Shown piece after piece: positions 1 through 64,000 of a DNA stretch of 64,000 bases. The stretch is from Escherichia coli (GTDB lineage: Bacteria; Pseudomonadota; Gammaproteobacteria; Enterobacterales; Enterobacteriaceae). The position numbers were made by a program, and so were the translations under genes. The notes under the pieces were generated by a model, which was given only the letters and a program-made list of their open reading frames with translations, was not told where the DNA came from and did no database searches. How positions within the stretch are numbered: position 1 is the first letter of the stretch; each line of letters starts with the position of its first letter. The stretch lies in NCBI RefSeq assembly GCF_003334315.1, contig NZ_QOWR01000017.1. One strand, written 5' to 3'.

Positions 1-883
1 GAATATGCAAGGTTTACAGCTGACGGGTTACCCGGCAACCGGTACGCCGCCGACTATTCAGCAAGGGGCGAATCCGACCAATATTTCGATCCCGAATACC
101 CTGATGGCAGCGAAAACTACCACCACGGCATCGATGCAGATCAACCTGAATTCCAGTGATCCGCTTCCTACTGTTACGCCATTCAGCGCCAGCAATGCGG
201 ATAGCTATAACAAAAAAGGTTCGGTGACTGTTTTCGACAGTCAGGGTAATGCTCATGACATGAGCGTCTACTTTGTGAAGACCGGGGATAATAACTGGCA
301 GGTCTACACCCAGGATAGCAGTGATCCAAACAGCATTGCGAAGACAGCGACAACACTGGAATTTAATGCTAATGGCACATTAGTGGATGGTGCGATGGCG
401 AATAATATCGCAACCGGCGCAATTAACGGTGCAGAACCCGCCACGTTTAGTCTGAGCTTCCTCAACTCCATGCAGCAAAATACCGGCGCTAACAATATTG
501 TGGCAACCACCCAGAACGGCTACAAACCGGGCGATCTGGTGAGTTATCAAATCAATGATGACGGTACGGTTGTCGGCAACTATTCCAACGAACAAACCCA
601 ACTGCTGGGGCAGATTGTACTGGCGAACTTTGCCAACAACGAAGGTCTGGCATCCGAAGGCGACAACGTCTGGTCTGCGACGCAATCTTCTGGCGTGGCG
701 CTGTTGGGGACAGCCGGGACGGGAAACTTTGGCACCCTGACCAACGGTGCGCTGGAAGCGTCCAACGTCGATCTCAGTAAAGAACTGGTCAATATGATCG
801 TTGCCCAGCGTAACTATCAGTCTAACGCCCAGACCATCAAAACCCAGGACCAGATCCTCAACACGCTGGTTAACTTACGCTAA
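1..883 (+). CDS. flgE: Flagellar hook protein FlgE, C-terminal part (5' end upstream of window)
   Basis: Frame open from window edge to stop at 881-883; translation ends ...VAQRNYQSNAQTIKTQDQILNTLVNLR, the conserved hook-protein C-terminus; followed by flgF. Confidence 0.93.
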   Translation, partial: NMQGLQLTGYPATGTPPTIQQGANPTNISIPNTLMAAKTTTTASMQINLNSSDPLPTVTPFSASNADSYNKKGSVTVFDSQGNAHDMSVYFVKTGDNNWQVYTQDSSDPNSIAKTATTLEFNANGTLVDGAMANNIATGAINGAEPATFSLSFLNSMQQNTGANNIVATTQNGYKPGDLVSYQINDDGTVVGNYSNEQTQLLGQIVLANFANNEGLASEGDNVWSATQSSGVALLGTAGTGNFGTLTNGALEASNVDLSKELVNMIVAQRNYQSNAQTIKTQDQILNTLVNLR

Positions 884-902
884 TCGCTGACGGGATAGCT
901 CA

Positions 903-1658
903 ATGGATCACGCAATTTATACCGCGATGGGAGCAGCCAGCCAGACACTGAATCAACAGGCGGTAACCGCCAGTAATCTGGCCAATGCCTCAACGCCCGG
1001 TTTTCGCGCGCAGTTGAATGCTTTACGCGCGGTGCCAGTGGAAGGGCTTTCTCTGCCCACGCGCACGTTGGTCACGGCGTCAACGCCGGGCGCAGATATG
1101 ACGCCCGGCAAAATGGATTACACCTCGCGCCCGCTGGACGTCGCGTTGCAGCAGGATGGCTGGCTGGCCGTGCAGACCGCTGACGGCAGCGAAGGGTATA
1201 CGCGTAATGGCAGCATTCAGGTTGATCCCACCGGGCAACTGACAATTCAGGGGCATCCGGTGATAGGCGAGGCTGGGCCAATTGCTGTGCCGGAAGGGGC
1301 GGAAATCACTATTGCTGCCGATGGCACAATCTCGGCGCTCAATCCGGGCGATCCGGCAAATACGGTTGCGCCAGTAGGGCGTCTTAAACTGGTGAAAGCC
1401 ACGGGCAGCGAAGTGCAGCGCGGTGACGACGGCATTTTTCGTTTAAGCGCAGAAACCCAGGCCACGCGTGGGCCGGTACTGCAGGCAGATCCAACCTTGC
1501 GTGTGATGTCGGGGGTTCTGGAAGGCAGTAACGTCAATGCCGTTGCGGCAATGAGCGACATGATTGCCAGCGCGCGGCGTTTTGAAATGCAGATGAAGGT
1601 GATCAGCAGCGTCGATGATAACGCAGGCCGTGCCAACCAACTGCTGTCGATGAGTTAA
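903..1658 (+). CDS. flgF: Flagellar basal-body rod protein FlgF
   Basis: 251-aa ORF, recognised sequence and operon position. Confidence 0.95.
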   Translation: MDHAIYTAMGAASQTLNQQAVTASNLANASTPGFRAQLNALRAVPVEGLSLPTRTLVTASTPGADMTPGKMDYTSRPLDVALQQDGWLAVQTADGSEGYTRNGSIQVDPTGQLTIQGHPVIGEAGPIAVPEGAEITIAADGTISALNPGDPANTVAPVGRLKLVKATGSEVQRGDDGIFRLSAETQATRGPVLQADPTLRVMSGVLEGSNVNAVAAMSDMIASARRFEMQMKVISSVDDNAGRANQLLSMS

Positions 1659-1750
1659 TTGAAAGGATACATGACAAGTATAAGTTGCCCGATGCGCAAG
1701 TTTATCGGGTCTATGGGGGCAATCGCAATTTATCGATTTTGCGAGCACTT

Positions 1751-1787
<37 letters not shown>

Positions 1788-1811
1788 AAGACATATGCAC
1801 TTTGTCACTAA

Positions 1812-2612
<801 letters not shown>

Positions 2613-2664
2613 GGCTTAACCGGTGGCAGGTTCACCGGTTTACTGATTTTTGAAGATGATAGCC

Positions 2665-3363
2665 ATGCAAAAAAACGCTGCGCATACTTATGCCATTTCC
2701 AGCTTGTTGGTGCTTTCACTAACCGGCTGCGCCTGGATACCCTCCACGCCGCTGGTGCAGGGGGCGACCAGTGCACAACCGGTTCCCGGTCCGACGCCCG
2801 TCGCCAACGGTTCTATTTTCCAGTCTGCTCAGCCGATTAACTATGGCTATCAACCGCTGTTTGAAGATCGTCGACCACGCAATATTGGCGATACGCTGAC
2901 CATCGTGTTGCAGGAGAACGTCAGCGCCAGCAAAAGCTCCTCTGCGAATGCCAGCCGTGACGGTAAAACTAATTTTGGCTTTGATACTGTGCCGCGCTAT
3001 TTGCAGGGGCTGTTTGGTAACGCTCGTGCCGATGTCGAAGCCTCCGGTGGTAACACGTTCAACGGAAAGGGCGGGGCCAATGCCAGCAATACCTTTAGCG
3101 GCACGTTGACGGTGACGGTTGACCAGGTACTGGTCAACGGCAACCTGCATGTGGTGGGTGAAAAACAGATTGCCATTAATCAGGGTACCGAATTTATTCG
3201 CTTCTCTGGCGTGGTTAATCCACGCACTATCAGCGGCAGCAATACCGTACCGTCTACTCAGGTGGCGGATGCGCGCATTGAATACGTAGGCAATGGCTAC
3301 ATTAACGAAGCGCAAAATATGGGCTGGTTGCAGCGTTTCTTCCTTAACCTGTCGCCAATGTAA
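2665..3363 (+). CDS. flgH: Flagellar L-ring lipoprotein FlgH
   Basis: ORF 2650..3363; start taken at internal ATG ([22 protein letters not shown]...), signal peptide with lipobox LTGC; 232 aa. Confidence 0.92.
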
Positions 3364-3374
3364 GTGAGGCTGTG

Positions 3375-4472
3375 GTGATTAAATTTCTCTCTGCATTAAT
3401 TCTTCTACTGGTCACGACGGCGGCTCAGGCTGAGCGTATTCGCGATCTCACCAGTGTTCAGGGGGTAAGGCAAAACTCACTGATTGGCTATGGTCTGGTG
3501 GTGGGGCTGGATGGCACCGGTGACCAGACAACCCAGACGCCGTTTACCACACAAACGCTTAATAACATGCTCTCACAGCTGGGAATTACCGTTCCGACGG
3601 GCACCAATATGCAGCTAAAAAACGTCGCTGCGGTAATGGTGACAGCGTCACTTCCTCCGTTTGGACGTCAGGGGCAAACCATCGATGTGGTGGTTTCTTC
3701 CATGGGAAATGCCAAAAGCTTGCGTGGAGGTACGTTGTTGATGACACCGCTTAAGGGCGTTGACAGTCAGGTGTATGCGCTGGCGCAGGGCAATATTCTG
3801 GTTGGCGGCGCAGGAGCCTCCGCTGGCGGTAGCAGTGTTCAGGTTAACCAACTGAACGGTGGACGGATCACCAATGGTGCGGTTATTGAACGTGAATTGC
3901 CCAGCCAGTTTGGCGTCGGGAATACCCTTAATTTGCAACTTAACGACGAAGATTTCAGCATGGCGCAGCAAATCGCTGACACCATCAACCGCGTGCGTGG
4001 ATATGGCAGCGCCACCGCGTTAGATGCGCGGACTATTCAGGTGCGCGTACCGAGTGGCAACAGTTCCCAGGTCCGCTTCCTTGCCGATATTCAGAATATG
4101 CAGGTTAATGTCACCCCGCAGGACGCTAAAGTAGTGATTAACTCGCGCACCGGTTCGGTGGTGATGAATCGCGAAGTGACCCTCGACAGCTGCGCGGTAG
4201 CGCAGGGGAATCTCTCAGTAACAGTTAATCGTCAGGCCAATGTCAGCCAGCCAGATACACCGTTTGGTGGTGGACAGACTGTGGTTACTCCACAAACGCA
4301 GATCGATTTACGCCAGAGCGGCGGTTCGCTGCAAAGCGTACGTTCCAGCGCCAGCCTCAATAACGTGGTGCGCGCGCTCAATGCGCTGGGCGCTACGCCG
4401 ATGGATCTGATGTCCATACTGCAATCAATGCAAAGTGCGGGATGTCTGCGGGCAAAACTGGAAATCATCTGA
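3375..4472 (+). CDS. flgI: Flagellar P-ring protein FlgI
   Basis: ORF to stop at 4472; N-terminal signal peptide (M)[18 protein letters not shown]; GTG start at 3375 (alternative GTG 3372). Confidence 0.93.
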
Positions 4473-5413
4473 TGATCAGCGACAGCAAACTACTGGCAAG
4501 TGCGGCCTGGGATGCGCAATCACTCAACGAACTAAAGGCGAAAGCGGGCGAAGATCCGGCGGCAAATATCCGTCCGGTGGCCCGTCAGGTGGAAGGGATG
4601 TTCGTGCAGATGATGTTGAAAAGCATGCGCGACGCTTTACCAAAAGATGGCCTATTCAGCAGCGAGCACACTCGCCTGTATACCAGTATGTATGACCAGC
4701 AGATTGCCCAACAGATGACGGCGGGCAAAGGTCTGGGGCTTGCAGAGATGATGGTTAAACAGATGACGCCAGAACAACCATTGCCAGAGGAGTCCACGCC
4801 AGCAGCACCGATGAAATTCCCGCTCGAAACTGTGGTGCGTTATCAAAATCAGGCGCTTTCGCAGCTGGTGCAAAAGGCCGTGCCACGTAACTACGATGAT
4901 TCGCTGCCGGGTGACAGTAAAGCATTCCTCGCGCAACTCTCGCTGCCCGCCCAACTGGCAAGCCAGCAAAGCGGTGTGCCACATCATTTGATCCTCGCTC
5001 AGGCGGCACTGGAATCTGGTTGGGGGCAACGGCAAATCCGCCGCGAAAACGGCGAGCCGAGCTATAACCTGTTTGGTGTCAAAGCCTCTGGCAACTGGAA
5101 AGGGCCAGTTACTGAAATCACCACGACTGAATATGAAAACGGCGAAGCGAAGAAAGTAAAAGCGAAGTTTCGCGTCTACAGCTCGTATCTGGAAGCCTTG
5201 TCGGATTACGTTGGGCTGTTAACGCGTAACCCGCGCTACGCCGCCGTGACGACCGCCGCGAGTGCGGAACAGGGGGCGCAGGCCCTACAGGACGCGGGCT
5301 ATGCCACCGATCCTCACTATGCCCGCAAACTCACCAACATGATTCAGCAGATGAAATCGATAAGCGACAAGGTGAGCAAAACCTACAGTATGAACATTGA
5401 TAATCTGTTCTGA
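4472..5413 (+). CDS. flgJ: Flagellar rod-assembly protein / peptidoglycan hydrolase FlgJ
   Basis: Start [10 protein letters not shown] overlapping flgI stop (ATGA); C-terminal glucosaminidase-like domain; 313 aa. Confidence 0.93.
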   Translation: MISDSKLLASAAWDAQSLNELKAKAGEDPAANIRPVARQVEGMFVQMMLKSMRDALPKDGLFSSEHTRLYTSMYDQQIAQQMTAGKGLGLAEMMVKQMTPEQPLPEESTPAAPMKFPLETVVRYQNQALSQLVQKAVPRNYDDSLPGDSKAFLAQLSLPAQLASQQSGVPHHLILAQAALESGWGQRQIRRENGEPSYNLFGVKASGNWKGPVTEITTTEYENGEAKKVKAKFRVYSSYLEALSDYVGLLTRNPRYAAVTTAASAEQGAQALQDAGYATDPHYARKLTNMIQQMKSISDKVSKTYSMNIDNLF

Positions 5414-5478
5414 ATAACTCAAGTCCGGCGGGTCGCTGCCGATAATACTCTGTAATTGAAGGCTTATAAGGAACCTCC

Positions 5479-7122
5479 ATGTCCAGCTTGATTAATAACG
5501 CCATGAGCGGACTGAACGCGGCCCAGGCGGCGTTAAATACGGCAAGTAATAATATCTCCAGCTATAACGTTGCCGGATATACCCGCCAAACCACTATTAT
5601 GGCGCAGGCCAATAGCACGTTGGGCGCTGGCGGCTGGGTTGGCAATGGTGTCTACGTTTCTGGTGTGCAGCGTGAGTATGATGCGTTTATTACCAACCAG
5701 TTACGTGCGGCGCAGACGCAAAGTAGCGGTCTGACTGCCCGCTATGAGCAGATGTCGAAAATCGACAATATGCTCTCCACCAGTACCTCTTCGCTGGCAA
5801 CACAGATGCAGGATTTCTTCACCAGCCTGCAAACGCTGGTGAGTAACGCGGAAGACCCGGCAGCGCGCCAGGCGCTGATTGGGAAATCAGAAGGATTGGT
5901 GAATCAGTTTAAAACCACCGATCAATATCTGCGCGACCAGGACAAACAGGTCAATATCGCGATAGGTGCCAGCGTTGATCAGATCAACAACTACGCTAAA
6001 CAAATTGCCAGCCTGAACGATCAAATCTCGCGCCTGACAGGCGTGGGGGCAGGGGCGTCACCTAACAATCTGCTGGATCAACGCGATCAACTGGTGAGCG
6101 AATTAAACCAGATTGTTGGTGTAGAAGTCAGCGTTCAGGATGGCGGCACTTATAACATCACGATGGCCAATGGTTACTCACTGGTTCAGGGAAGTACGGC
6201 GCGGCAACTGGCGGCAGTTCCTTCCAGCGCTGACCCTTCTCGTACGACTGTCGCTTATGTTGATGGGACGGCAGGCAATATTGAGATCCCGGAGAAATTA
6301 CTGAATACCGGGTCGCTGGGCGGCATTCTGACATTCCGTTCTCAGGATCTGGACCAGACGCGTAATACGCTTGGACAACTGGCGCTGGCATTTGCCGAGG
6401 CTTTCAACACCCAACACAAAGCCGGATTTGATGCTAACGGCGATGCCGGTGAAGATTTCTTTGCTATCGGTAAGCCCGCGGTTCTGCAAAACACGAAAAA
6501 CAAAGGTGACGTTGCGATCGGTGCCACGGTAACTGATGCCTCCGCGGTACTGGCGACAGATTACAAAATCTCGTTCGATAATAATCAGTGGCAGGTCACC
6601 CGCCTTGCCAGCAATACCACTTTTACGGTGACGCCGGATGCCAACGGTAAAGTGGCATTTGATGGTCTGGAGTTGACGTTTACAGGAACGCCTGCCGTTA
6701 ACGACAGCTTCACGCTGAAACCAGTAAGTGACGCCATCGTCAACATGGATGTATTAATCACCGACGAAGCGAAAATAGCGATGGCGAGCGAAGAAGATGC
6801 GGGTGATAGCGATAACCGCAACGGTCAGGCCCTGCTGGATCTGCAAAGCAACAGTAAAACGGTGGGCGGTGCGAAATCCTTTAACGACGCTTATGCCTCG
6901 TTAGTGAGTGATATCGGTAATAAAACCGCGACGTTGAAAACCAGTAGCGCCACGCAAGGTAATGTGGTGACGCAGCTTTCCAATCAGCAGCAGTCGATTT
7001 CCGGTGTCAATCTCGATGAGGAGTACGGAAATCTGCAACGTTTTCAGCAGTATTACCTGGCGAATGCGCAGGTTCTGCAGACGGCAAACGCGATTTTTGA
7101 TGCGCTGATTAACATTCGCTAA
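5479..7122 (+). CDS. flgK: Flagellar hook-associated protein 1 FlgK
   Basis: 547-aa ORF, recognised sequence. Confidence 0.95.
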   Translation: MSSLINNAMSGLNAAQAALNTASNNISSYNVAGYTRQTTIMAQANSTLGAGGWVGNGVYVSGVQREYDAFITNQLRAAQTQSSGLTARYEQMSKIDNMLSTSTSSLATQMQDFFTSLQTLVSNAEDPAARQALIGKSEGLVNQFKTTDQYLRDQDKQVNIAIGASVDQINNYAKQIASLNDQISRLTGVGAGASPNNLLDQRDQLVSELNQIVGVEVSVQDGGTYNITMANGYSLVQGSTARQLAAVPSSADPSRTTVAYVDGTAGNIEIPEKLLNTGSLGGILTFRSQDLDQTRNTLGQLALAFAEAFNTQHKAGFDANGDAGEDFFAIGKPAVLQNTKNKGDVAIGATVTDASAVLATDYKISFDNNQWQVTRLASNTTFTVTPDANGKVAFDGLELTFTGTPAVNDSFTLKPVSDAIVNMDVLITDEAKIAMASEEDAGDSDNRNGQALLDLQSNSKTVGGAKSFNDAYASLVSDIGNKTATLKTSSATQGNVVTQLSNQQQSISGVNLDEEYGNLQRFQQYYLANAQVLQTANAIFDALINIR

Positions 7123-7133
7123 GGGGAGATAAG

Positions 7134-8087
7134 ATGCGTTTCAGTACACAGATGATGTACCAGCAAAACATGCGTGGTATCACCAATTCTCAGGCAGAAT
7201 GGATGAAGTACGGCGAACAGATGTCGACGGGTAAGCGAGTCGTTAACCCTTCTGACGATCCCATTGCTGCATCACAAGCCGTAGTTCTCTCCCAGGCACA
7301 GGCGCAAAACAGCCAGTACACGCTGGCGCGTACTTTCGCCACTCAAAAAGTGTCACTGGAAGAGAGTGTACTTAGCCAGGTCACCACTGCTATCCAGAAT
7401 GCTCAGGAAAAAATTGTCTACGCCAGCAATGGCACCTTGAGTGACGATGACCGGGCCTCGCTGGCTACGGATATTCAGGGGCTTCGTGACCAGTTGCTGA
7501 ATCTGGCAAACACCACTGACGGTAACGGGCGCTACATTTTTGCCGGTTATAAAACAGAGACTGCGCCGTTTAGCGAAGAGAAAGGGAAATACGTCGGTGG
7601 AGCAGAAAGTATTAAGCAACAGGTCGATGCTTCGCGTTCGATGGTGATAGGACATACGGGTGACAAAATTTTCGACAGTATTACCAGCAACGCAGTAGCG
7701 GAGCCAGACGGTAGCGCTTCTGAAACCAATCTTTTTGCCATGCTGGATAGCGCCATCGCAGCCCTGAAAACGCCGGTCGCGGATAGCGAAGCGGATAAAG
7801 AAACCGCCGCTGCGGCGTTAGATAAAACCAACCGCGGACTGAAAAACTCGCTGAACAATGTCCTGACCGTTCGCGCGGAATTAGGCACGCAGCTGAACGA
7901 ACTGGAGTCGCTGGATTCATTAGGTAGCGATCGCGCTTTAGGGCAAACGCAGCAGATGAGCGATCTGGTTGATGTGGACTGGAATGCAACTATTTCATCT
8001 TACATCATGCAGCAAACGGCATTGCAGGCATCGTATAAAGCATTTACCGATATGCAGGGATTGTCGCTCTTCCAGCTCAACAAATAA
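7134..8087 (+). CDS. flgL: Flagellar hook-associated protein 3 FlgL
   Basis: 317-aa ORF, recognised sequence. Confidence 0.95.
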   Translation: MRFSTQMMYQQNMRGITNSQAEWMKYGEQMSTGKRVVNPSDDPIAASQAVVLSQAQAQNSQYTLARTFATQKVSLEESVLSQVTTAIQNAQEKIVYASNGTLSDDDRASLATDIQGLRDQLLNLANTTDGNGRYIFAGYKTETAPFSEEKGKYVGGAESIKQQVDASRSMVIGHTGDKIFDSITSNAVAEPDGSASETNLFAMLDSAIAALKTPVADSEADKETAAAALDKTNRGLKNSLNNVLTVRAELGTQLNELESLDSLGSDRALGQTQQMSDLVDVDWNATISSYIMQQTALQASYKAFTDMQGLSLFQLNK

Positions 8088-37636: not shown

Positions 37637-40600
37637 TTAAGCGATCGCGTTCTCTTCCAGTTCACGCATAAACTGGCGTACCCATTCGATACGCGTTTTC
37701 CGCTCACTCAAATCCTGAATAAATTTCAGGCGCGTCGGACCATCAAGGCGGTAATGCTGCGGCTGTTTTTGCAGCAAACCAATCAACCAGGCCGGATTAA
37801 CGTGATTCTTCTCGGCAAATTCGATCACCCCGCCTTTCTCATTACCTTCCAGCTTCCTGATCCCCAGTTTCTGCGCTTGCTGGCGCAGACGGGCAATATC
37901 CAGCAGGGTACGCGCCGGATCTGGCAGCAGGCCGAAGCGATCGATAAGCTCGACTTTGATCTCTTCCAGTTCGTTTTCCGTTTTGGCGCTGGCAATACGT
38001 TTGTAGAACGACAGACGCGTGTTCACGTCAGGGATGAAATCATCTGGCAATAGCGACGGCATCCGCAGCTCGACTTCTGTTTGCTGGCTGGTGAGATCTT
38101 CCAGCGACGGCTCGCGTCCGGCTTTCAGTGCATCGACGGCGTTTTCCAGCAACTCCATATACAGCGAGAAACCGATGGTTTCCATTGAGCCGCTTTGTTC
38201 TTCGCCAAGCAGTTCACCCGCGCCGCGAATCTCCAGATCGTGCGTTGCCAGCGCAAAACCTGACCCGAGATCTTCCAGCGAGGCAATTGCTTCAAGACGT
38301 TTTTGTGCATCGGTAGTCATCGCTTTTGGATGCGGTGTCAGCAACCATGCATATGCCTGATGATGCGAACGTCCGACGCGACCGCGTAACTGGTGCAGCT
38401 GCGCCAGACCGAAGTGATCCGCGCGTTCAATGATAATAGTGTTGGCTGTCGGGATGTCGATCCCGGTTTCGATAATGGTTGTACAAACCAGCACGTTGAA
38501 ACGTTGATGATGGAAATCATTCATCACCCGTTCCAGTTCGCGCTCGCGCATCTGCCCGTGACCGATGGCGATCCGCGCTTCTGGCACCAGTTCTGCCAGC
38601 CGTTCGGCGGCTTTCTGAATGTTTTCCACATCATTGTAGAGATAATAAACCTGTCCTCCGCGCAAAATTTCACGCAGGATCGCCTCCCGGACCACCATGC
38701 TGTCATACTCACGGACAAAGGTTTTAACTGCCAGACGACGGGCGGGCGGCGTGGCGATAATCGACAGGTCACGCATTCCGCTCATTGCCATATTCAGCGT
38801 ACGTGGGATCGGCGTTGCAGTAAGCGTCAGAATATCCACGTTCGCGCGCGTCGCTTTAATGCGCTCTTTATGACGCACCCCGAAGCGGTGTTCTTCATCG
38901 ACAATCAGCAGGCCTAAATCTTTAAACTTGACGTCACTTTGCAGCAGTTTGTGCGTACCGATCAGAATATCGATTTTCCCTTCCGCCACTTCCGCAAGGA
39001 TTTGCGTCTGCTCTTTGGCGCTGCGGAAACGGGAGATCATTTCGATACGTACCGGCCAGTTGGCGAAACGGTCGCGGAAGTTGTCGTAATGCTGCTGCGC
39101 GAGAAGGGTGGTAGGCACCAGCACCGCCACCTGCTTGTGGTTATCTACTGCCAGGAAAGCTGCGCGCATCGCCACTTCTGTTTTACCAAAGCCAACATCG
39201 CCGCACACCAGACGATCCATTGCCAGCGGCTGACACATGTCGCTAAGTACCGCATTAATGGCCTGCGCCTGATCCGGCGTGGTTTCAAACGGGAAGCTGT
39301 CGCAGAACAACTGATACTGCTCACGATCGTGTTTAAACGCGAAGCCCTCTTTGGCGGCGCGTTGCGCGTAGATATCCAGCAATTCCGCCGCCACATCACG
39401 CACTTTTTCCGCCGCTTTCTGCCGCGCGCGTGACCACGCATCGCCGCCAAGTTTATGCAGCGGGGCGTTTTCTTCCGCGCCACCTGCGTAACGGCTAATC
39501 AGATGCAGTGACGACACCGGAACATACAGTTTGGCGTCGTTGGCATAGGTGAGCATCAGATACTCGCCAGTAATGCCACCCGCTTCCAGCGTGGTCATTC
39601 CGGCATAACGACCGACGCCGTGCTCCAGATGGACCACCGGCTGACCAATATGCAGTTCCGCAAGGTTACGGATCAGTGTATCGGGGTTGATGGTGCGGCG
39701 AGAATCCTGACGACGACGGGCAACGCGTTCACCGAGCAGATCGCTTTCGCAAATCAGCGCCAGATTACGCACCGTATCGACAAAACCATGTTCGGCAGCG
39801 CCAATCATCAGATAACGCCCACGGTCGCTGGCTTCATCAAGACGCATAATGCGTTGCGGAGCAATTTTAATTCGTGCGAGCAGTTCACCCAGCGCTTCAC
39901 GGCGACCTTCACTTTCTACCGAGAACACCACCGGACCGTCGAAAGTCTCGAGGAACTTACGCAGCGCATCCAGCGGCGCTTTTTGTTGTGCCTGAACGGC
40001 CAGGTCTGGCAGTTTCTGGAAACCTAAATTGGCATTCGCGGCTTTTGTCGGTAAATGTTCAGTTTTTAGCTGCACCCGGGGCCAGTTTTTCAGCTCTGAG
40101 AAGAGCTCGTCCACCCGCAGCCAGAGCGATTGTGGTGGCAACAGCGGGCGCATCGGATCGACGCCGCGATTCTCAAAACGCGCCAGCGTGTCAGCCTGGA
40201 AACGTTCGGCACTGGTTTCCAGATCGCCAGTATTCACGAGCAAGGTATTGGCAGGGAAATAACTGAACAGCGGCGGCAGTGGTTCGCTGAAGAACAATGG
40301 CTGCCAGTACTCGATCCCGGCAGGTAATGTGCCTTTACTCACTTGCTGGTAAATATGTTCTGGATCGCGCTTCACTTCGAAGGTATCGCGCCACTGGCTG
40401 CGGAACAGTTCAATTGCCGCTTTATCGGTCGGAAATTCGTGCGCGGGCAGCAGATTGATCGCTTCTACTTCCTCCAGCGTGCGCTGGCTGTCGACGTCAA
40501 ACACCCGCAGGCTGTCGATTTCATCATCAAAGAAATCAAGACGATAAGGCAGCTCACTCCCCATCGGGAAGAGATCCAGCAACGCGCCGCGCGTGGCGTA

Positions 40601-41210: not shown

Positions 41211-42275
41211 TTAGCGGGAGTAACTGACGGCAGCGGGCAGTGAAGGCGGGGAGAACAACAGATCGCTGAATGCACGCTGTGAAAGTTTTCTTACCAGCAA
41301 GCCCGCAACAGTACAGATGAACAAACTGACAAAGGGATAAACCAGCAGGAGTGTCAGTTCGACTTGCGGCGACCAGCGTGCTGCGTTCATTTGCGCAAGC
41401 AGAGTTAAGCTGAATATTTCAACCAGAATGCGATGGGTGGTGTAGATAGCAATGGTGTTGGAGCCAATCACATTCAGCAGGCTGGTGGAGCGCATACCGA
41501 ATCGTTGCTCGTATTGATAAAACAGCTTCATGATCACCACAATCGATACCAGCGACAACAGCAGCGAGATAGTAAACAACCAGGCACCGACCGCCAGAAC
41601 GGTAAGCAAAGAAGCCATCAGCAGATGGCGGCGCAACGGCACCTCTTTAACACAGGTCATTATTGTTGCGCCAAACCATGCGCCAAGGCTGTAATAAGGC
41701 AAATTGCGGATCACACTGTTCATTCCCCACCACGGCGTGGGAACGAAATTAACCGCCACACTCAGCAGTACAAACAAGGCGAATAGTGGCAGCGCCAGAC
41801 GGCTAAAAATTTTACATACCACGAAATAGACAATTAACGCATACAGATACCACAAGCTGGTGCTGGCGGTGATCATCCCGTGCAGGAACTCACCGGTGGA
41901 ATCGGCATAAGCGGCATTGCTTAAATCGCGCTCAGGTGCCAGCCACTGGTTCAGCGCACTTAACGCCAGCCACTGCACCACGCCCCAAAGCGCCAGCACC
42001 CAGAAGATGTTCCAGATCCGTTTATCGAGACAATTTCCCCACGGTACGCTGTCGATATAGCGGCGAATCAAATAGCCGGATATAAAGAAAAAAACCGGCA
42101 TACGAAAGGGGGCAAGGTAAAGATTGAAATAGATCCAGCATTTGCTCAGGACTTCCGATAACGGATGCTGAAAAGTGGTCAGATGCGGATAAAAGGTAAT
42201 GACCGAGTGATAAATCACCACCAGACAAATACATAACCCTTTGATCTGGTTAATCCATAGCTCTTTTTGTTTCAT
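41211..42275 (-). CDS. ycfT: Acyltransferase-3 family inner-membrane protein YcfT
   Basis: 354-aa ORF, multi-pass hydrophobic; position between mfd and lolC. Confidence 0.85.
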   Translation of the reverse strand: MKQKELWINQIKGLCICLVVIYHSVITFYPHLTTFQHPLSEVLSKCWIYFNLYLAPFRMPVFFFISGYLIRRYIDSVPWGNCLDKRIWNIFWVLALWGVVQWLALSALNQWLAPERDLSNAAYADSTGEFLHGMITASTSLWYLYALIVYFVVCKIFSRLALPLFALFVLLSVAVNFVPTPWWGMNSVIRNLPYYSLGAWFGATIMTCVKEVPLRRHLLMASLLTVLAVGAWLFTISLLLSLVSIVVIMKLFYQYEQRFGMRSTSLLNVIGSNTIAIYTTHRILVEIFSLTLLAQMNAARWSPQVELTLLLVYPFVSLFICTVAGLLVRKLSQRAFSDLLFSPPSLPAAVSYSR

Positions 42276-46629: not shown

Positions 46630-47469
46630 ATGCTGTCGCGTCGGGGTCATCGGTTAAGTCGTTTTCGTAAAAATAAACGCCGCCTGCGCGAGCGTTTGCG
46701 TCAGCGTATTTTTTTCAGAGATAAAGTGGTGCCGGAAGCAATGGAAAAACCAAGAGTACTCGTACTGACAGGGGCAGGAATTTCTGCGGAATCAGGTATT
46801 CGTACCTTTCGCGCCGCAGATGGCCTGTGGGAAGAACATCGGGTTGAAGATGTGGCAACGCCGGAAGGTTTCGATCGCGATCCTGAACTGGTGCAAGCGT
46901 TTTATAACGCCCGTCGTCGACAGCTGCAGCAGCCAGAAATTCAGCCTAACGCCGCGCATCTTGCGCTGGCTAAACTGCAAGACGCCCTCGGCGATCGCTT
47001 TTTGCTGGTGACGCAGAATATCGACAACCTGCATGAACGCGCAGGTAATACCAATGTGATTCATATGCATGGGGAACTGCTGAAAGTTCGTTGTTCACAA
47101 AGTGGTCAGGTTCTCGACTGGACAGGAGACGTTACCCCAGAAGATAAATGCCATTGTTGCCAGTTTCCGGCACCCTTGCGCCCGCACGTAGTGTGGTTTG
47201 GCGAAATGCCACTCGGCATGGATGAAATTTATATGGCGTTGTCGATGGCCGATATTTTCATTGCCATTGGCACATCCGGGCATGTTTATCCGGCGGCTGG
47301 GTTTGTTCACGAAGCGAAACTGCATGGCGCGCACACCGTGGAACTGAATCTTGAACCGAGTCAGGTTGGTAATGAATTTGCCGAGAAATATTACGGCCCG
47401 GCAAGCCAGGTGGTGCCTGAGTTTGTTGAAAAGTTGCTGAAGGGATTAAAAGCGGGAAGCATTGCCTGA
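46630..47469 (+). CDS. cobB: NAD-dependent protein deacylase CobB (sirtuin), long isoform
   Basis: 279-aa ORF with Arg-rich N-terminal extension, then the sirtuin core ([10 protein letters not shown]...). Confidence 0.94.
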
Positions 47470-47560
47470 TGCACTACGCTTATCAGGCCTGCAAGGGGAC
47501 GCAATTAATTGAATTTGCGGGTTTTGTGGGCCGGATAAGGCGTTCGCGCCCCATCCGGCA
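47464..47560. repeat. REP/BIME elements downstream of cobB
   Basis: gcctgatgcactacgcttatcaggcct and gggccggataaggcgttcgcgccccatccggca. Confidence 0.75.
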
Positions 47561-47588
47561 TAATACACGCGCACTTTTCCGGCCTCTT

Positions 47589-48376
47589 TTATCGTTTACT
47601 CGTCAATAACAATGCGGCAATAAACGTACAGACACCAATTAGCCCTGCCCAGAGTGGCGATATTCTGGTAATCGCAAAGCTATTATCGATATACAAACAT
47701 AAAGCCTGATAACCCATATTGGCAATAGTCATCGCCACTGCAAATTTTAACGCATAAATAAAACGAGTCGTGTAGTAAAAGATCCTGGAAAATAAGATAA
47801 ACGTCGCAGCCCAGGCGATAAAACCTAATGTGTTGGTGCTGCCGGGGGGAGCATTTTCATGCTGTTGTCCTGGATGCGGATAATACGTTAGTGGCGGCGT
47901 CGATTGTTTTAATATCTGTGCTTGTAGAACAGCCAATGCATTATTGATTCCCTGATACCAGAGATCTGCATTTAAATAAGCCAGCGTGTGATTTTCTATC
48001 AGAAGGCCGAGATGTTTATCGTCCAGACCACTTTCAACCTGGCCGTTGGTGATCATAATTAACCGTGGTTCGCGGGTAGTAAATAGTAACAGAACACTTC
48101 CTTTTACATCACTCAATGAAGATGACGCATGCGCCAGCATCGCTTTACCATTTTGTCTGAGACTGGCTTCATTATTAATGTCGGGTAAAACCACAATAAA
48201 CGGTGCAATTCCCGTTTGTTGGCGAAAAAGCTCGGCTTATGCGCGATCTCTTCAGCATCTGGTACAGTACCGGTAACGTCCGTAAAAAGTGTCTTCATTA
48301 TTGGAATTAATGGCTTGCTGGCTGCTGTCAGAGGCAGGAGTATCAGTAAACTGAGCAGTATAATGAATTTTTTCAT
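47589..48376 (-). pseudogene. ycfZ: ycfZ, inner-membrane protein gene apparently disrupted by a -1 frameshift
   Basis: N-terminal ORF 48113..48376 (signal peptide [22 protein letters not shown]...) and C-terminal ORF 47589..48194 are in different frames; the second frame reads ...AELFRQQTGIAPFIVVLPDINNEASL... straight through the junction after a TAA, so a single base missing near 48238-48240 would join them into a 262-aa protein. Confidence 0.7.
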
Positions 48377-48843
48377 GGGCGGGACTTCCGTTTCCTGCGT
48401 GATTTTTTAGAGGAGGGCATACTTATTAATAAACCGACGGCGATAAAAATAACGCCCATAATGCCGATAAACCCCCATTTAAAAAAATTAACCCACGGGT
48501 TATTTATCTCAGCCTTTTCAGGATGCCCGGGAGAATAATAAACATTAACTTTATCGCCTTCGCTGTCTTCATAAAAATCGCTGCCGATACTCGAATTGAA
48601 AATTAGCGTGTAATCTGGCGTCGGTCGAAAGGCAACGACGGGATACCACGAACCATCTTTACCCGTGCGATGAGAATGACTGGAGTGCCAGACGGTATCA
48701 ACAATGACGCCTTCGGTATGAATCGCGTCTTTGCTATAGGTGAACTGGTTATAAAAGACAACAACAGAAATGAGGATCAGTACCAGACCGATACCGAGGA
48801 ATATACGAAAGAAAACTTTACTGTCCTGACTCATTAGCCACAT
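48373..48843 (-). CDS. ymfA: Inner-membrane protein YmfA
   Basis: 156-aa ORF (reference-like start may be 9 nt downstream); two TM segments. Confidence 0.85.
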
Positions 48844-48844
48844 C

Positions 48845-48873
48845 CTTGCTAACTAAAAAACGGGCGGTAATAC
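48845..48873 (-). terminator. Rho-independent terminator after potD
   Basis: Minus-strand hairpin agcgggcggtggtattaccgcccg followed by ttttttag. Confidence 0.75.
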
Positions 48874-48891
48874 CACCGCCCGCTTGCTGAA

Positions 48892-49938
48892 TTAACGTCC
48901 TGCTTTCAGCTTCTGATAATACTCTTCATAAATGCTGCTGGCTGCGCCAACGTCATTCTGCCATTCGCCATTTTTAATGGTTTCAGCATCCGGGTAGAGC
49001 GTTTTATCGTTCGCCACTTCCGGGCTTAACAGCTTACGCGCCGCAAGGTTTGGCGTTGGATAACCGATAGTTTCGGCAACCTGTTTTGCCACATCCGGGC
49101 GCAGCAGGAAGTTGATCAATTTCAGCGCGCCTTCTTTGTTTTTGGCATTTGCCGGGATCGCCAGGCTGTCCATCCAGAAAATGCCGCCTTCTTTCGGCCA
49201 TACCACGTCAATTGGCGTACCCGCCTGGCGTGCAACGAAAGCAGAACCGTTCCAGATCATGCCGAGGTTAACTTCGCCTTCCATGTACGGGTTAGCCGGG
49301 TTATCGGAGTTAAAGGCTGCCACGTTTGGCATCAGTTTTTTCAGCTCGTTATATGCAGCTTCAATCTCTTTCGGATCGGTGGTGTTACCGGAGTAGCCCA
49401 GCTTACGCAGCGCCATCTGGAACACTTCACGGGCATCGTCGGTCAACAGCAGGCTGCCTTTGTACTCAGGCTTCCACAGATCGGCCCAGCTGGTGACAGA
49501 TTTCGGATCCACCGCATCACCGTTAACACCAATCGCCGTCGCACCCCAGATATACGGAATGGAGTAATCGTTATTCGGGTCAAACGGCTTATTGAGCATG
49601 TCTGGATCGAGATTGCTGAAGTTCGTTAACTTCGACTTGTCGATCTTCTGGATCATCCCTTCTTTACGCATTTTATCGACGTAATAGGTTGAAGGAACCA
49701 CCAGGTCATAGGCACCGTCTTTGTACGTTTTCAGCTTGGCATACATGGTTTCGTTCGACTCGTAAGTCGAATAGATAACCTTAATACCGGTTTCTTTGGT
49801 GAACTGTTCAAGCAGTCCTGGCGGCACGTACTCGGTCCAGTTGTAGAAATACAGCGTGTTGTTGTCATCGGCGTGAGCGGCGCTCATGCCCAGTGCCAGA
49901 GCACCCGCCGCGAGCAGGTGGCGTGACCATTTTTTCAT
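48892..49938 (-). CDS. potD: Spermidine/putrescine ABC transporter periplasmic binding protein PotD
   Basis: 348-aa ORF with signal peptide. Confidence 0.95.
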   Translation of the reverse strand: MKKWSRHLLAAGALALGMSAAHADDNNTLYFYNWTEYVPPGLLEQFTKETGIKVIYSTYESNETMYAKLKTYKDGAYDLVVPSTYYVDKMRKEGMIQKIDKSKLTNFSNLDPDMLNKPFDPNNDYSIPYIWGATAIGVNGDAVDPKSVTSWADLWKPEYKGSLLLTDDAREVFQMALRKLGYSGNTTDPKEIEAAYNELKKLMPNVAAFNSDNPANPYMEGEVNLGMIWNGSAFVARQAGTPIDVVWPKEGGIFWMDSLAIPANAKNKEGALKLINFLLRPDVAKQVAETIGYPTPNLAARKLLSPEVANDKTLYPDAETIKNGEWQNDVGAASSIYEEYYQKLKAGR

Positions 49939-63634: not shown

Positions 63635-63796
63635 TTATGTGGATATTATTAATAGCATATCGAGCATATTTATATGAAGCCCATTACTTGAGCCCATATG
63701 GGCATATTTTTATAATGCAACTATTATGTAAACATTTATTTGTTATTTTGCTTTCTCCTGGAGGACACTCTTGACTGCTTTTGAGTAAACTCCATA

Positions 63797-64000
63797 GGTG
63801 ATGCTGCCAACTTACTGATTTAGTGTATGATGGTGTTTTTGAGGTGCTCCAGTGGCTTCTGTTTCTATCAGCTGTCCCTCCTGTTCAGCTACTGACGGGG
63901 TGGTGCGTAACGGCAAAAGCACCGCCGGACATCAGCGCTATCTCTGCTCTCACTGCCGTAAAACATGGCAACTGCAGTTCACTTACACCGCTTCTCAACC
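63797..64000 (+). mobile_element. IS1 insertion sequence, left end (continues beyond window)
   Basis: ggtgatgctgccaacttactgatttagtgtatgatggtg... is the IS1 terminal inverted repeat, followed by the insA start. Confidence 0.93.
63852..64000 (+). CDS. insA: IS1 InsA (transposition repressor), N-terminal part; truncated by window edge
   Basis: GTG start; translation [50 protein letters not shown]... Confidence 0.93.

Follow-up and report, generated by a model that had tools for sequence, protein, structure and literature searches.

Gene order at the ycfZ locus

The window, by which we mean the whole 64,000-nt stretch of E. coli chromosome analysed here, carries on its minus strand two open reading frames (ORFs) in different frames, an 87-aa ORF with an ATG start and a 201-aa ORF with a GTG start, situated between ymfA and cobB with potABCD adjoining (Table 1). 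The earlier note had reported these two ORFs and had named the gene ycfZ. Their ends and frames are exactly as claimed, and the name is right: the orthologous CDS between ymfA and cobB is called ycfZ in RefSeq, with the product 'TPM domain-containing protein'. The stop codon of ymfA overlaps the start codon of ycfZ (ATGA), indicating that ymfA and ycfZ form a two-gene unit, which is convergent with cobB and set apart from potABCD by a strong, terminator-like hairpin. Both genes have a low G+C content (42.6% for ycfZ and 43.5% for ymfA, against 51.5% for the window), and alignment of the ymfA stretch revealed no differences between the window and its relatives. In the convergent intergenic region, an Rfam scan gave a sub-threshold match to the REP-derived naRNA4 at 47529-47566 (32.4 bits, compared with a gathering score of 59.5); the scan returned nothing relevant.

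Table 1. Features of the ycfZ locus in window coordinates.
Feature	Position	Strand	Remarks
cobB	46630-47469	+	
cobB-ycfZ convergent intergenic region	47470..47588	.	contains a REP-like element
ycfZ pseudogene, spanning both ORFs	47589..48376	-	788 nt, compared with 789 nt in the intact gene
downstream ORF, 201 aa	47589..48194	-	corresponds to YcfZ residues 62-262
upstream ORF, 87 aa	48113..48376	-	47 native residues, 40 out-of-frame residues, TGA stop
lesion site	48237..48238	-	residual AA of the AAA run (intact gene: codon 47, AAA, and the beginning of codon 48)
ymfA (DUF3592)	48373..48843	-	intact upstream partner of ycfZ; PF12158, E 1.6e-6
terminator-like hairpin	48858..48885	-	just 3' of potD; 12-bp stem and T-run
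potD	48892-49938	-	

A single missing base splits ycfZ

Each of the two ORFs represents one half of E. coli ycfZ. Apart from a single missing base they are 100% identical to the halves of the known gene, so that a chance resemblance is not an issue. The intact allele is in turn 100% identical to ycfZ of K-12 MG1655, and the window agrees with this K-12-type allele at 788 of 789 positions, the remaining one being a gap. At the junction the window reads CATAAGCC in place of CATAAAGCC in intact genomes, that is, AAA is shortened to AA. Alignment of the window and of RCAD0514, a strain with the same allele, to the intact strain 720632 showed this as the single difference (CAT-AAGCC compared with CATAAAGCC), and blastn against the intact strain 2018-01-1CC placed the gap at window position 48237. 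The missing A belongs to the AAA run at nt 139-141 of intact ycfZ, of which AA is left at 48238-48237; the resulting allele, with the sequence string CGCGCATAAGCCGAG, is referred to below as ΔA.

When translated, the downstream frame runs ...A*AELFRQQTGIAPFIVVLPD... across the junction, and can be read through it as the earlier note had described. Putting one A back yields a 262-aa protein of the K-12 type, the same length to which the intact allele translates. The proposal that a 1-bp deletion in a short A-run had split ycfZ, and that one additional A at this position would fuse the ORFs into a 262-aa product, is confirmed by the ORF list, the translation and the alignment to an intact genome. 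The window contains no single 262-codon ORF, only the 87-aa and 201-aa parts, and lacking an uninterrupted ORF its copy is a pseudogene of the family rather than a functional member.

Effect on the protein

Intact YcfZ consists of a hydrophobic N-terminus (residues 1-27), a TPM domain and a hydrophobic C-terminal region, and its sequence makes a signal-peptidase site after TAAS plausible. In the restored protein, residues 41-152 match PF04536 (TPM) with an E value of 2.1e-6, covering model positions 13-123 of 125. In the window, translation from the normal ATG would leave the native frame after Lys47, add 40 unrelated residues and end at 87 aa, and the periplasmic TPM domain (41-152) and the C-terminal hydrophobic membrane region would not be made. 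The 47 native residues of the upstream ORF comprise a probable signal peptide followed by the first residues of the TPM domain, and the out-of-frame tail is strongly basic, with 9 K+R against 2 D+E. The 87-aa product has no exact match in the protein collection.

The downstream ORF starts with GTG without a Shine-Dalgarno sequence (upstream ACGGGAATTGCACCGTTTATT GTG) and encodes no signal peptide; it matches PF04536 with an E value of only 0.0035 over model positions 64-123 of 125, which is half of the domain. Owing to its GTG start and the lack of a Shine-Dalgarno sequence and a signal peptide, expression of this ORF is unlikely; it is a by-product of the frame change. Exact matches to its 201-aa product occur on 170 contigs and arise from many different upstream lesions, so their number is no measure of the number of ΔA carriers. 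The simple reading of these features is that the outcome would be a simple loss of function. As no gene follows ycfZ in its unit and cobB is convergent with it, no polar effect is expected, and a phenotype of the mutation is presumably absent.

Quality of the window sequence

Since an exact match to 24 kb of the window was found in no genome and the records were 9-10 bases longer, an error-prone assembly was suspected. This was ruled out, as the excess consists of one in-frame 9-bp deletion in ycfT and the ycfZ base. Over 40.7 kb, the window differs from RCAD0514 by 8 SNPs and one in-frame 9-bp gap; against the intact strain 2018-01-1CC, the 9-bp gap recurs together with 5 SNPs and the 1-bp gap in ycfZ. 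Comparison with close relatives over the same 40.7 kb revealed no other frame-breaking indel. In the assembly UGDC01000003.1, by contrast, phoQ, roxA, potC, nagK and mfd are all split. The window is clean sequence.

Of the five SNPs private to the window, two are missense (A941S in mfd and G185S in hflD), one is synonymous and lies in purB, and two are intergenic. They lie at 38263, 52735, 58436, 59287 and 61032, and all are G:C to A:T or T:A changes relative to every relative examined; four are transitions and one is a transversion, which fits an ordinary mutational bias, the sample being too small for more. Within ycfT (minus strand, 41906-41920), 9 bp (GGCATTGGA) kept in six of six close relatives aligned are missing from the window. 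This loss, private to the window strain, is a slip in frame between GGCATTG direct repeats and removes three residues of the acyltransferase YcfT (SNASNAAY to SNAAY).

The same allele in other genomes

Of the complete RefSeq genomes covering this stretch, 4268 in all, exactly 9 matched a 61-nt query centred on the junction at 100%; each of the remaining genomes has at least one difference, the closest matches spanning 62 bases. The two-ORF arrangement is accordingly not the normal state among orthologues: of the 4268 genomes with a match to the query, 4259 lack the exact allele. The nine carrier records are RCAD0514, AHM9C68I, AHM9C61I, JX21CE33 (two assemblies), 2017.13.01CC, 30EVA2, 23CRST042 and ES6. 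Their sources are duck, chicken, human and a frog farm, three of the records coming from a duck (Sichuan, China), a human (Ecuador) and frog-farm sediment (Guangdong, China). In RCAD0514, 23CRST042 and ES6 the identical allele bears the RefSeq label of a 'frameshifted' pseudogene. ΔA also occurs beyond the complete genomes, in the draft assembly GCA_001268345.1, with 10 similar places besides; the same lesion is thus present in nine complete genomes and at least one draft, sequenced independently. The window strain is a further carrier from outside the complete-genome set.

As a marker of descent independent of ycfZ, we used the 120-nt junction, at L003:44347-44466, of an IS1 insertion beside bluF, located ~19 kb from ycfZ. 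Among 5426 genomes this bluF-IS1 junction was found as a single 100% piece in the same nine carriers and in no other. Perfect co-segregation of two unrelated rare events indicates that the nine carriers are one clade and that the deletion is inherited. Eight of the nine carriers also have in common an IS1-pdeG' deletion junction found nowhere else, and in these eight records IS1 has deleted ycgZ-ymgA-ariR-ymgC together with the 5' part of pdeG. In ES6 the IS1 is present and ycgZ to pdeG are still kept, which looks like an intermediate state. The ycgZ-bluF intergenic region, which lies outside the window (L003 44407-45174; L007 5276-5973), looks like an IS1 hot spot, several unrelated genomes having an IS1 near, not at, the position occupied in the carrier clade.

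For the window itself, the bluF-IS1 marker would fall beyond coordinate 64000, ~3.5 kb past the end of the window, and no second clade marker is found within it. The lesion is identical to that of the RefSeq carriers, and a 951-bp region is 100% identical between them and the window. The window is identical to none of the nine carriers and is without three SNPs common to RCAD0514 and 23CRST042. With respect to one ancestral flanking haplotype, the window, ES6, GCA_001268345.1 and the eight-record subclade show private changes only. The window strain thus probably belongs to the clade, on the basis of the ΔA allele and a flanking haplotype equal to that inferred for the clade's ancestor. The left 23 kb of the window gave no information on its placement, as carriers and non-carriers are all ~100% identical there.

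At its right end the window enters an IS1 (63797-64000; IS1A-type end, GGTGATGCTGCC...), which breaks the 107-codon iraM gene near codon 71 and within which the window ends. That this IS1 is common to the window and ES6 was considered and rejected: in ES6 the element lies between iraM and icd, with the target duplication at window 63676-63684, the two sites are ~112 bp apart and the IS1 variants differ. The orientation of the IS1 in the window iraM is opposite to that of the bluF-proximal IS1 of the carrier clade, and an IS1-mediated inversion may link the two.

Variability of ycfZ across E. coli

In a sensitive-mode search, ycfZ was absent from 577 of 5426 genomes (~10%), missing together with ymfA. 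The ymfA-ycfZ module is wholly missing in O157:H7, O145 and others, in which cobB and potD are adjacent; in O157:H7 NE122 they are 155 bp apart. Where present, ycfZ alleles are 88-100% identical across E. coli, and the best match of the surrounding 24-kb stretch is at least 95% in every genome. On the K-12-type background other null alleles occur, namely +T and ΔT in a T5 run (nt 89-93), ΔT in a second T5 run (nt 148-152), a stop codon at Q54 and an 11-bp deletion, and IS1 insertions in ycfZ are found at about nt 90, 305, 335 and 675. Among the loci compared, ycfZ is disrupted in L008, L009, L011, L012 and L014-L019, and ymfA in L010, where an IS1 sits in its 3' end. In LR134228.1 (L016), which has a truncated ymfA and a ΔT allele of ycfZ, a prophage at 1-7300 with integrase, cI/Cro-like and KilR-like genes abuts potC, in place of potA and potB.

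ycfZ is dispensable in nature. It is unlikely that its loss has been repeatedly selected rather than being neutral decay, with the lack of an envelope protein advantageous in some niches, for example by escape from phage or another envelope-targeting agent. Such selection would be in keeping with the module missing from ~10% of genomes and with at least ten independent inactivating events on one allele background (ΔA, +T, two ΔT, the Q54 stop, the 11-bp deletion and four IS1 sites). Several ΔA carriers come from poultry, and ycfZ is reported as one of the genes hit by mutation in phage-resistant APEC mutants (PMC12057083). The catalogue of null alleles is, however, biased by the manner of their discovery and lacks a neutral baseline; what it demonstrates is that the gene can be dispensed with, and not that its loss is selected.

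The idea that ymfA-ycfZ, being low in G+C, variable and either present or absent, might be an anti-phage defence module was rejected, as neither YcfZ nor YmfA had a PADLOC match at E values up to 0.01 and no known or candidate defence family was matched.

Origin of the ΔA allele

We conclude with high confidence that the split ycfZ is a genuine, vertically inherited loss-of-function allele, created by the loss of a single A in the ancestor of a small lineage. The ycfZ allele of this lineage is otherwise identical to that of K-12, and replication slippage or some other spontaneous event was the probable cause of the loss of one A from the AAA run (nt 139-141). The earlier note had left the choice between a genuine strain-specific pseudogene and a homopolymer sequencing error. 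The allele is indeed genuine, being present in nine complete genomes of one clade, but it is lineage-specific rather than strain-specific.

A sequencing or assembly error, with AAA in the source genome and the loss of one A at the base-calling or polishing step, is disfavoured and appears very unlikely. Single-base indels in homopolymers are the commonest long-read errors. The A-run follows a few bases after a Dam site (GATC), and UGDC01000003.1, where many other genes are split too, shows that ycfZ can be broken by such an error, there the loss of a T in a T5 run. The run in question is merely 3 bases long, however, and neither the recurrence of the identical allele in nine complete genomes and at least one draft nor the absence of indel noise from the window is expected from such an error. 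As the IS1 marker of the nine carriers occurs in no AAA genome, in these nine the allele tracks ancestry and not the sequencing platform. The study series from Thai Binh, Viet Nam, points in the same direction, with 2018-01-1CC intact and 2017.13.01CC, assigned to the series by its name, deleted.

Marginally less probable still is an independent recurrence, in which the window strain lost the same A apart from the nine-genome clade and which would imply a mutational hot spot. Slippage is not strongly favoured at an A3 run, the carriers number only 9 of 4268 and are monophyletic, and private-only changes from one ancestral flanking haplotype are what a single origin followed by radiation predicts. 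These points outweigh the lack of another clade-derived marker within the window and the length changes that the two T5 runs, both within the first 160 nt of ycfZ, have undergone in other lineages. Either recurrence or error at the very same base would be unparsimonious.

The probability that -1 ribosomal frameshifting joins the ORFs and some near-native YcfZ is still made is negligible. A slip at the near-slippery C UUU UUC (48230-48224), 5 nt downstream of the lesion and 6 nt ahead of a small hairpin, would restore the frame and give 262 aa with residues 48-50 alone non-native. This motif is only a near-miss, however, and the zone in which a -1 shift could rescue the frame contains no X XXY YYZ heptamer of the canonical kind; the fold that follows is not more stable than those of shuffled sequences (z -0.86; 38 of 200 shuffles at least as stable). 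The same sequence stands in the intact gene and so was not selected for recoding, and the two-ORF state is rare (9 of 4268), derived, confined to a single clade and not conserved among orthologues. On these grounds we rejected programmed frameshifting.

The vertically inherited deletion has modest implications. The two ORFs are best annotated as a single pseudogene, 'ycfZ, frameshifted', rather than as two hypothetical proteins. Together with the bluF-IS1 junction, ΔA provides a handy marker of a small lineage whose members come from poultry, humans and aquaculture sediment. That ycfZ is hypervariable, often broken and sometimes absent marks this TPM-domain membrane protein as dispensable, which is mildly useful for assigning a function. 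The significance of the frameshift as such is small and the finding an ordinary one: ΔA is an ordinary pseudogene that was already known, the allele being flagged as 'frameshifted' in RefSeq.

Comparison with known relatives

The 262-aa intact protein is WP_000713462.1, listed in UniProt as YCFZ_ECOLI, 'Inner membrane protein YcfZ', and named 'YgcG family protein' in some recent RefSeq records. No NCBIfam model matched YcfZ, and no sequence relative was found in the PDB at E values up to 1; in the literature the gene appears in gene lists only, with no function assigned. With respect to its family (PF04536, TPM_phosphatase), intact YcfZ matches the profile and has the architecture of a signal-like segment, a TPM domain and a C-terminal hydrophobic region, whereas the window copy is interrupted close to the start of the domain.

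The closest relative is K-12 ycfZ (b1121; WP_000713462.1), which occupies the same locus between ymfA and cobB and is identical but for the missing A; unlike the K-12 gene, the window copy shifts frame after codon 47 and is unable to encode complete YcfZ. The carriers labelled 'frameshifted' in RefSeq have the same lesion, and the window is set apart from them by five private SNPs, a private 9-bp deletion in ycfT and its own IS1 in iraM. The other natural ycfZ nulls lead to the same outcome, in that no full-length YcfZ is made, but they arose through different events in different lineages.
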